Shown: in pieces, positions 33,998 through 34,240 of the stretch | Layout of the letters: every line of letters begins with the position of its first letter | Position numbering within the stretch: position 1 is the first letter of the stretch | DNA from: Oscillatoria sp. FACHB-1406 | GTDB taxonomy: Bacteria; Cyanobacteriota; Cyanobacteriia; Cyanobacteriales; Spirulinaceae | Direction of reading: 5' to 3' | Assembly: GCF_014698145.1 (NCBI RefSeq) | Contig: NZ_JACJSM010000001.1 | Coordinates: forward strand, 152,633-216,632 | DNA length: 64,000 nt | Translations under genes and position numbers: made by a program | The notes under the pieces: model-generated | Database searches by the model: none | What the model was told of the DNA's origin: nothing | Seen by the model: the letters and a program-made list of their open reading frames with translations, nothing else

Positions 33998-34240
33998 TAG
34001 GGGCATAACATTGTTCATTAGTGTCAACTTAAGCTTAACCCCTCGCTCACCTAGCCCGCCTTGGGTTCAAACCCAAGGCTAATAGCTCAAGTCCTCTGAA
34101 GAGGACTGGGAAATTCAGATGTATCTAACCCGTTTCAACGGGTTTCAGTTATTAGCCAGGAACTTGAGTTCCTGGCGGGCTAAGTGTTTCACCTTAAGTT
34201 GACGCTAATGAACATTGTTATGCCCTGTTATGCTTTATCG
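33998..34240. repeat. structured inverted-repeat element (~240 bp) with REP-like ~35-bp terminal inverted repeats and four internal tetraloop hairpins
   Basis: Ends GTAGGGGCATAACATTGTTCATTAGTGTCAACTTAAG ... CTTAAGTTGACGCTAATGAACATTGTTATGCCC. Inner pairing TAGCCCGCC/GGCGGGCTA. Hairpins: CCTTGGGT-TCAA-ACCCAAGG, AGTCCTC-TGAA-GAGGACT, AACCCGT-TTCA-ACGGGTT and CCAGGAAC-TTGA-GTTCCTGG. Confidence 0.7.

Follow-up and report, generated by a model that had tools for sequence, protein, structure and literature searches.

What is the palindrome-rich block that separates a Uma2 gene from a kinase-FGE gene in the cyanobacterium Oscillatoria sp. FACHB-1406: a structured RNA, a repeat made of repetitive extragenic palindromes (REPs) such as a REPIN (REP doublet forming hairpins), or a transposable element? 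The block occupies positions 33997-34225 of the 64,000-nucleotide stretch analyzed here (hereafter the window; positions 152,633 to 216,632 of contig NZ_JACJSM010000001.1), within a 657-bp gap between the two divergent genes. An earlier note on this DNA had described a block with long inverted termini, an inner pairing layer and four hairpins, and had wavered between a structured RNA and a REPIN-like MITE (a miniature transposable element with inverted repeats). By sequence reading and a repeat scan, we found each of the features it listed in its place. We conclude that the block is very probably a MITE inserted in a REP. This reading rests on terminal inverted repeats (TIRs), a 9-bp direct duplication, and the same architecture, duplication length and preference for REP centers in 22 elements.

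The element, its target and its relatives

A repeat scan places the inverted arms of the block at 34001-34043 and 34183-34225. Each arm is 43 nt long and the two are 86% complementary, with only 2 mismatches in the outer 33 nt; the window has two occurrences of the 21-nt terminal motif, where 0 are expected. The termini had been described earlier as inverted repeats of ~35 bp related to REP. The relation to REP is real, in that a single REP is split by the insertion, whereas the termini are not one unit: each is composed of a REP half, a 9-bp target duplication and an 18-bp TIR. From the outside inward, the left arm reads GTAGGGGCAT (REP half), AACATTGTT (duplication) and CATTAGTGTCAACTTAAG (TIR), and from the inside outward the right arm reads CTTAAGTTGACGCTAATG (TIR), AACATTGTT (duplication) and ATGCCC (REP half). 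Read as a MITE in a REP, the block divides as follows.

33997-34006, unstranded: left half (GTAGGGGCAT) of the host REP that the insertion split; intact REP copies lie elsewhere in the window
34007-34015, unstranded: left copy of the target-site duplication, AACATTGTT, the REP center; identical direct repeat of 34211-34219
34016-34210, plus strand: MITE proper, 195 bp, noncoding; edges set by the TIRs and the duplication
34016-34033, plus strand: left TIR, CATTAGTGTCAACTTAAG, 18 bp; fits the end signature of the IS231 subgroup
34193-34210, minus strand: right TIR, reverse complement CATTAGCGTCAACTTAAG; from the repeat scan and family comparison
34211-34219, unstranded: right copy of the target-site duplication, AACATTGTT; direct repeat of the left copy
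34220-34225, unstranded: right half of the split REP (ATGCCC), with the intact REP copies as reference

The TIRs at 34016-34033 and 34193-34210 differ by 1 mismatch over 18 bp. The 9-bp flanks match at 9/9 positions as direct repeats, and when AACATTGTT is read as an inverted repeat a mismatch appears at its center base. No open reading frame (ORF) of 50 aa or more overlaps the 195-bp element, which aligns end to end with 14 elements from other cyanobacteria that have the same ends and bear the same four-hairpin core (described below). As a string, the window-type (type A) TIR reads CATNNGTGTCAACTTAAG. We propose that the MITE would have entered the center of a pre-existing REP palindrome by cut-and-paste DDE transposition, an insertion that would have duplicated 9 bp (AACATTGTT).

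The relatives on which the comparison draws (loci numbered with the prefix L) were gathered by plasmid BLAST and by scanning one genome of each species for the pattern. At least 120 loci carry the core pattern, nearly all of them cyanobacterial. Among the loci listed, 22 elements have window-type ends, namely the window copy and 21 in other cyanobacteria, and the TIRs are kept across them. The 9-nt flanks of these elements are identical as direct repeats in 10 of the 22 and match at 8 or more of 9 positions in 16. Read as direct repeats, they match better than as inverted ones in 19 elements, and the reverse is true of 2. Most of the targets are GTAGGGGCAC-N9-GTGCCCCTAC palindromes (GGGGCAC-N9-GTGCCCC), and thus the element homes to REP centers. 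Non-palindromic 9-mer targets are found in L116 (GAAAATGAT), L061 and L066. A tandem double insertion in Nostoc sp. NMS8 (L012, 792-1349) comprises two elements that have their ends in common but not their interiors, with three copies of TGCATTGCT around them, which indicates repeated use of one REP center. As for copies per genome, at least 11 loci come from Hormoscilla bin.26 and 5 from Fischerella PCC 9431 among the loci listed. The MITE half of the earlier description is therefore upheld by the TIRs, the 9-bp direct target-site duplication and the many relatives with duplications of their own. The same note held that many copies with target-site duplications would mark a plain MITE rather than a noncoding RNA (ncRNA); such copies are what we found, and with them the ncRNA reading falls.

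Several observations weigh against an insertion at this site. Since the target is palindromic, a duplication and an extension of the TIRs differ by a single base in the window copy alone, and the case is carried by the family. A covariance-model scan of the 64-kb window returned one copy. Look-ups of the flanking proteins gave no record, a search for an empty orthologous site through homologs of the flanking kinase gave one identical protein and then nothing above 50% identity, and the reconstructed empty site had no match in a metagenome scan. The intact paralogous REPs in the window serve only as a proxy for that empty site. Three further searches were negative within their scope: the exact 21-mer of REP plus TIR from the window had no match in a genome contig collection, the copy in Nostoc C052 had no orthologous empty-site locus in the plasmid search, and viral contigs scanned with the core pattern gave one match only, and so no link to phages.

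The REP that the MITE is proposed to have split belongs to a GTAG-type palindrome with intact copies in the window at 3602-3628 (GTAGGGGCATAACAGTGTTATGCCC), 37392-37416 and 38097-38121. The last two copies, of the same REP as that split by the MITE, bracket an ORF (37451-38008, plus strand) 3 kb from the MITE. This ORF matches the NCBIfam model REP_Tyr_transpos, for the REP-associated tyrosine transposase (RAYT), with E = 5e-19 and 68.6 bits, where the curated cut-off is 80; it has no Pfam match and no PDB sequence match, and the NCBIfam match is its sole family match. These surroundings, together with REP sequence in the outer arms of the block (GTAGGGGCATAAC...), raise the alternative that the block is a REPIN, that is, two inverted REPs and a spacer moved by a nearby RAYT-like Y1 transposase. 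REPINs are likewise symmetric, with conserved ends or arms, a variable spacer in which changes are compensatory, and a possible clover fold (PMC3116915). The REP pieces of the block, however, are two halves of one palindrome around a 9-bp direct duplication and not two complete inverted REPs around a short spacer; the flanking 9-mers are direct and not inverted, and the interior bears no likeness to REP. Unlike a REPIN, the window element has DDE-type (specifically IS4-type) TIRs of its own, and REP is its target DNA rather than a part of it, as is also seen from L116, where the same insert lies in the non-REP target GAAAATGAT. Transposition of the IS200/IS605 type by Y1 enzymes makes no target duplication, whereas one is present here. 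Elements derived from IS200/IS605 and associated with palindromes lack both TIRs and a target duplication and have, at each of their two ends, a subterminal hairpin in the same orientation, whereas the block has TIRs and the 9-bp duplication. No RAYT homolog was found in the core loci, in which a single-copy RAYT would rarely be sampled. We consider a REPIN extremely unlikely, and the REPIN-like label of the earlier note is dropped. On the MITE reading, one parasite, a MITE family homing to the centers of RAYT-type REPs, uses another as a safe landing site.

Other repeats near the RAYT-like gene also resemble its REPs. Directly downstream of the kinase-FGE gene, positions 36594-37342 hold a tandem array of eight 93-bp units with 91% matches, each unit having a REP-like hairpin GTAGGGGCATAACACTTTATGCCC, in a highly ordered tandem arrangement. 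Just past the end of the RAYT-like gene, at 38009-38105, a 10-bp tandem repeat GCATAACCGG of 9.7 copies leads straight into a REP; it seems to have arisen by expansion of a portion of a single REP arm.

Terminal sequences and the transposase

Which transposase could have moved the element? The MITE ends have the form CAT(N3)GTGTCAACTTAAG, and CATTAGTGTCAACTTAAG, with AA at positions 11-12 and TAA at 15-17, fits the signature CAT-------AA--TAA. This end signature, along with direct repeats of 10-12 bp, characterizes the IS231 subgroup of the IS4 family of insertion sequences (ISs) (De Palmenaer et al., PMC2266710 Table 1), and IS231 has target specificity (PMC2266710). We read the ends of IS231F directly from a B. 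thuringiensis plasmid (L125), where they consist of CATGCCCATCAACTTAAGGA and its inverted copy with a 12-bp duplication. The MITE end is identical to the IS231F end CATGCCCATCAACTTAAG at 13/18 positions, the whole TCAACTTAAG block included. Based on the match to the subgroup end signature and to IS231F, we somewhat favor mobilization in trans by an IS231-type transposase of the IS4 family.

The likeness extends to the IS231/MIC231 system of the Bacillus cereus group as a whole. In both systems the ends begin with CAT and have TCAACTTAAG in common, the duplication is about one helical turn, and there is a marked target preference; the target consensus of IS231 is said, in work by Hallet and colleagues in 1994, to be GGG-N5-CCC. 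MIC231 are mobile insertion cassettes on IS231 ends in Bacillus, with the same ends around unrelated noncoding interiors, as seen here in L012, L037 and L105. The differences lie in the host phylum, in the target, which here is a longer REP palindrome, and in the absence of an IS231-type transposase from the cyanobacterial DNA examined.

Several points weigh against this attribution. The 9-bp duplication lies outside the 10-12 bp of the IS231 subgroup (12 bp in L125), while falling inside the range of the IS4 family at roughly one helical turn. In ~1 Mb of cyanobacterial loci, there were no pairs of IS231-signature ends 0.9-3 kb apart and no ORFs with the YREK motif. In a tblastn search of plasmids with the IS231F transposase, none of the ten genera listed was cyanobacterial, another 13 being unnamed. 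As these searches found no autonomous IS with such ends, the attribution to IS4/IS231 is one made from the ends. In cyanobacteria, IS231-like ends occur with no visible cognate transposase.

A transposase gene of another kind adjoins the same terminal sequence on plasmid pn1 of Nostoc sp. UHCC 0926 (L002), which raises the alternative that the MITE derives from the IS630 family. There, ORFs encoding HTH_32 and DDE_3 domains come after the terminal sequence CATAAGTGTCAACTTAAGCTGAAATA. IS630 elements duplicate TA, however, whereas window-type elements duplicate 9 bp; no matching second end follows the IS630-type ORFs; and the junction in L002 lies within the MITE subterminal sequence. From the position of this junction, an IS630-type element most likely inserted into a MITE. 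We therefore rejected the IS630-type ORFs of L002 as the autonomous partner, on account of the wrong duplication length and the missing second end, and regard derivation from IS630 as highly improbable. Mobile elements are thus nested at L002 (400-2400): the IS630-type element, its HTH_32 and DDE_3 ORFs apparently frameshifted, abuts a type-A MITE end, and the pair lies inside a truncated TnpB-like ORF of the IS605 OrfB type.

The four-hairpin core

Between its TIRs, the MITE carries a core of paired segments, which we located in the window copy as follows.

34052-34060, plus strand: left strand of the outer closing stem of the core (TAGCCCGCC), including the CCCGCC box at 34055-34060; pairs with 34174-34182 in RNA and DNA folds
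34058-34079, plus strand: hairpin 1 (GCCTTGGGTT-CA-AACCCAAGGC); found by the repeat scan, with compensatory changes in the family at all six variable pairs
34077-34086, plus strand: conserved box GGCTAATAGC, left strand of the inner stem; pairs with 34148-34157
34090-34107, plus strand: hairpin 2 (AGTCCTCT-GA-AGAGGACT); invariant AGTC/GACT foot, inner 4 bp covary
34108-34126, plus strand: central spacer, not conserved and the site of nested insertions in relatives; its columns are unalignable across the family
34127-34144, plus strand: hairpin 3 (AACCCGTT-TC-AACGGGTT); its center mirrors that of hairpin 2, as in the whole family
34148-34157, plus strand: conserved box GTTATTAGCC, right strand of the inner stem; from the RNA fold and family alignment
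34155-34176, plus strand: hairpin 4 (GCCAGGAACT-TG-AGTTCCTGGC); found by the repeat scan, covaries across the family
34174-34182, plus strand: right strand of the outer closing stem (GGCGGGCTA); from RNA and DNA folds

This map confirms the second pairing layer reported earlier (CCCGCC/GGCGGG), which corresponds to TAGCCCGCC at 34052-34060 with GGCGGGCTA at 34174-34182, and adds a pairing that the note did not contain, between GGCTAATAGC (34077-34086) and GTTATTAGCC (34148-34157), which encloses hairpins 2 and 3. The junction at which the outer stem, hairpin 1, the inner stem and hairpin 4 meet has no unpaired linkers. The four stems had been given as 7-8 bp long and capped by TNNA tetraloops. 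Their centers are indeed TCAA, TGAA, TTCA and TTGA; the stems, however, are 8-10 bp and 100% complementary, and the T and A of each center can pair, which makes the hairpins palindromes with a 2-nt center. The earlier observation that the stems have a common geometry but unlike sequences holds, and extends to the whole family.

Folding of the block gave a very stable multi-branch structure, in agreement with the check proposed by the earlier note. The plus strand has a predicted RNA folding energy of -120.6 kcal/mol, compared with -60.7 +/- 4.8 in 200 shuffles (z = -12.5), and the minus strand one of -118.3 kcal/mol (z = -12.1). As single-stranded DNA, the 195-bp element folds at -48.1 kcal/mol (z = -9.0).

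We aligned 43 complete interiors and built a covariance model from the alignment. The core spans ~120 nt and reads CCCGCC, hairpin 1, GGCTAATAGC, nn, A, hairpin 2 (AGTC NNNN loop NNNN GACT), a variable spacer, hairpin 3, T, nn, GCTATTAGCC, hairpin 4 and GGCGGG. It is dyad-symmetric, being made of two mirror-image half-units, each of the form CCCGCC-hairpin-GGCTAATAGC-nn-A-AGTC hairpin GACT. The outer closing stem is 86% paired across the 43 aligned cores. The boxes CCCGCC and GGCTAATAGC/GCTATTAGCC and the AGTC/GACT feet are 70-100% conserved, and the same range per column is found in the right partner box (GCTATTAGCC), which had no part in ascertainment. In the same cores the spacer is saturated, and each of the four stems has turned over. 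The hairpin centers are mirrored too (hairpin 2, T[A/G/C]AA; hairpin 3, TT[T/C/G]A), and each half of the core is thus the same oriented unit. Identical hairpins 2 and 3 within one element were observed once against 3.7 expected (P = 0.09), so that avoidance is not significant. Against the covariance model, the window copy reaches 121.5 bits when read on the plus strand and 115.2 bits on the minus strand. The two strands likewise score alike at ~125 sites in 719 kb, and there are 169 sites over all loci.

In relatives, insertions in the central spacer lengthen the core to 148-339 nt. One Hormoscilla metagenome-assembled genome has a Uma2-family gene (L021, 6407-7310; Pfam E = 1.4e-18) exactly between the two half-units of one core, and Uma2 genes adjoin cores in the window, L034, L047, L016 and L022. 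The association of Uma2 with cores is not significant (8/236 neighbor genes versus 7/462 others; odds ratio 2.3, P = 0.09).

Do the stems reflect a constraint on RNA or on DNA? RNAalifold found compensatory double changes at 25/36 predicted pairs. Such strong covariation in all four hairpins, the very stable multi-branch fold and the position of the block upstream of two divergent genes are what a structured ncRNA gene or a cis-regulatory RNA transcribed from the intergenic region would present. The spectrum of the pairs points elsewhere. The four hairpins contain 1131 Watson-Crick, 15 G-T, 15 A-C and 43 other pairs, and 15 type-A copies oriented by their asymmetric linkers contain 473 Watson-Crick, 3 G-T, 3 A-C and 16 other pairs. 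Wobble pairs are the usual intermediates of RNA covariation, and here G-T (G-U in RNA; 15 of ~1,200 hairpin pairs) is no commoner than A-C, with no strand bias. A permissive Rfam search returned no family at threshold, the best match being Acido-Lenti-1 (25.4 bits, where the gathering score is 37). For promoters and terminators, matches at the block are at chance level. The two strands are equal in fold and score, and the element is dispersed in many copies with TIRs and duplications beside unrelated genes. Taken together, the pair spectrum, the absence of strand bias and the Rfam, promoter and terminator results favor hairpins that are palindromes maintained at the DNA level. Against this it should be said that an RNA that has to function whichever way round it is inserted would also be expected to have Watson-Crick-only stems. 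We judge a structured RNA, the other half of the earlier proposal, to be very unlikely.

The sub-threshold Acido-Lenti-1 matches lie at 34059-34087 (plus strand, 25.4 bits) and 34138-34175 (minus strand, 19.5 bits), each covering the hairpin of a half-unit and then GGCUAAU. They are probably coincidental; that core half-units and Acido-Lenti-1 share the pattern of a hairpin followed by GGCUAAU is nevertheless curious. The Acido-Lenti-1 motif is sometimes found near group II introns.

A process without any function could also keep the palindromes. In the quasipalindrome mechanism, a mutation in one arm is carried over to its partner arm when the template is switched during replication, and the hairpins would covary neutrally. 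The near absence of G-T intermediates, with G-T equal to A-C, is the signature of such one-step correction between arms rather than of stepwise, RNA-type compensation. Template switching does not account, however, for the conservation of boxes that are not palindromic (CCCGCC, GGCTAATAGC and the AGTC foot), for the oriented loop dinucleotides, or for the survival of the same architecture in families moved by different transposases. We consider neutral covariation of the hairpins possible, if on the unlikely side.

The last of these points concerns the distribution of the core, which occurs inside MITEs of at least four kinds that differ in their termini and in the length of the duplication (4, 9, 10 and ~11 bp).

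Type A: window-type termini, 9-bp duplication; the 22 elements
Type B: termini CTGAGATCTTGCACC, 4-bp duplication; perfect in 5 (L036 TATG, L112 TTGG, L062 ATTA, L075 TTTC, L050 TTTT)
Type C: termini CAGGGCTATTTCATTCT (also given as CAGGGCTATTTC), which we take to be of ISAs1 kind, 10-bp duplication; L038 GCAGTTGAGT, L044 GTATGGTGAC
Type D: termini TTGTCATTACCAACAT (also given as TTGTCATTACC), ~11-bp duplication; L113

Several further termini types carry the core beyond these four. Conversely, type-A ends also bracket two other, unrelated interiors (one in L012 and L037, the other in L105), all with 9-bp duplications, and a CAGGG-ended element in L113 has a REP in place of the core. The same core with different ends, and the same ends with different interiors, show that ends and interiors are modular.

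What is conserved along a transposon lineage mirrors the needs of the copies that propagate. Since the boxes are kept across types that need different transposases, the interior seems to matter for propagation independently of the transposase; one four-hairpin interior across unrelated ends and duplication lengths implies a constraint of this kind. Tentatively, the core may be a functional nucleic-acid module, either a chassis that short transposons need for synapsis or an independently mobile, REPIN-like element that colonizes the palindromic centers of MITEs. A module of either sort would explain the same interior in transposons of at least four transposase specificities. More specifically, we prefer, as a speculation, a core that works as DNA and encodes no strand-specific RNA: a hinge in the form of a cruciform or four-way junction, to which a host architectural protein may bind. 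We give this hinge a lower probability than the module in general. With such a hinge or host-factor site, both ends of a ~200-bp element could meet in the transposase synapse, and if the core is such a site, it would have a general bearing on how elements far below the persistence length of DNA transpose.

Alternatively, the core could be a module that is mobile or selected in its own right (a REPIN-like element of an unnamed enzyme, or a DNA or RNA element useful to the host) and that entered, or was captured by, several MITE families, in which case the window element would be a composite of two parasites. Consistent with this, the same core is central in MITEs of at least four unrelated termini and duplication lengths, type-A ends occur with other interiors, many cores have no recognizable outer TIRs and solo half-units exist, the boxes are conserved while the central spacer is saturated, and the half-units are mirrored with oriented loop sequences, like transposon ends. 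Directly flanking the core, however, there is neither a target duplication nor a conserved target motif; solo half-units have no recurrent neighbor gene, the core loci hold no RAYT homolog, and the adjacency to Uma2 is, as stated above, not significant. The core also has a fixed position within each MITE type, as expected of descent and not of repeated entry. We regard an independent module as rather unlikely. A transposase between solo half-units was sought and rejected, as no gene recurs there; in L079, a 737-aa ORF that lies between two cores encodes a Na+/H+ exchanger.

Comparable repeats and the genomic surroundings

Short mobile repeats are well described in cyanobacteria. Nezha, Muzha, the MITEs of Anabaena PCC 7120 and Anabaena sp. 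90, and the MaeMITEs of Microcystis resemble the window family in being small, noncoding, mostly intergenic and multi-copy, with TIRs and direct repeats. Nezha is said, in the paper on it, to be 130-170 bp long and to prefer A+T-rich sites. Very stable folds are predicted for cyanobacterial MITEs (PMC3184786, PMC3542288), and one MITE group has three nested sets of inverted repeats (PMC3542288). We compared these named MITEs with the window family by their descriptions and not by their sequences; targeting of REP centers and a core that crosses termini types are unmentioned in PMC3184786 and PMC3542288. The window family may already be named in the literature on cyanobacterial repeats. What may be new is the phylum-wide core common to several termini classes together with the targeting of REP centers, the window element itself being ordinary.

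Parallels are also known outside the phylum. IS1397 and ISKpn1 insert at the centers of REP palindromes in enterobacteria and so likewise represent a parasite that targets another repeat; they differ in being full-length ISs of the IS3 family with a 3-4-bp duplication, whereas the element here is non-autonomous and has IS4-type ends. Correia or NEMIS elements of Neisseria and the BOX elements of pneumococcus are short MITE-like repeats with conserved structured modules inside. Correia has a central site for the DNA-bending integration host factor (IHF), which is the analogy behind the hinge proposed above. Neither Correia nor BOX has a sequence relationship to the window family, Correia duplicates TA, and no protein-binding site has been identified in the core.

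For annotation, the block should be entered as a MITE in a REP and not as a candidate ncRNA, its very low folding energy being a property of the repeat family. The insertion lies 67 bp upstream of the start codon of Uma2, within the promoter region that Uma2 and the kinase-FGE gene share, and the expression of both may have changed. At 34335-34476, the same divergent intergenic region also contains a GTAG-tagged palindromic repeat of another type, GTAGGGTGGGAATTGCCG ... CGGCAATGCCCACC ... GGTGGGCAAGG ... CCTTGCCCACCCTAC; small repeats are piled up here.

The genes on either side have features of their own. The kinase-FGE gene (34607-36538, plus strand) encodes a Ser/Thr kinase fused to an FGE-sulfatase domain of the C-type-lectin fold, an architecture that is a frequent target of diversity-generating retroelements in cyanobacteria. 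Adjoining the Uma2 gene, an 856-aa ORF (30716-33286, minus strand) matches the Pfam Major Vault Protein (MVP) repeats with E = 1e-62 and the MVP shoulder domain with E = 1e-54, and, judging from these matches, would be a bacterial homolog of the shell protein of the eukaryotic vault. The HIP1 octamer GCGATCGC occurs in 96 copies in the 64-kb window, which marks the host as a HIP1-rich cyanobacterium.

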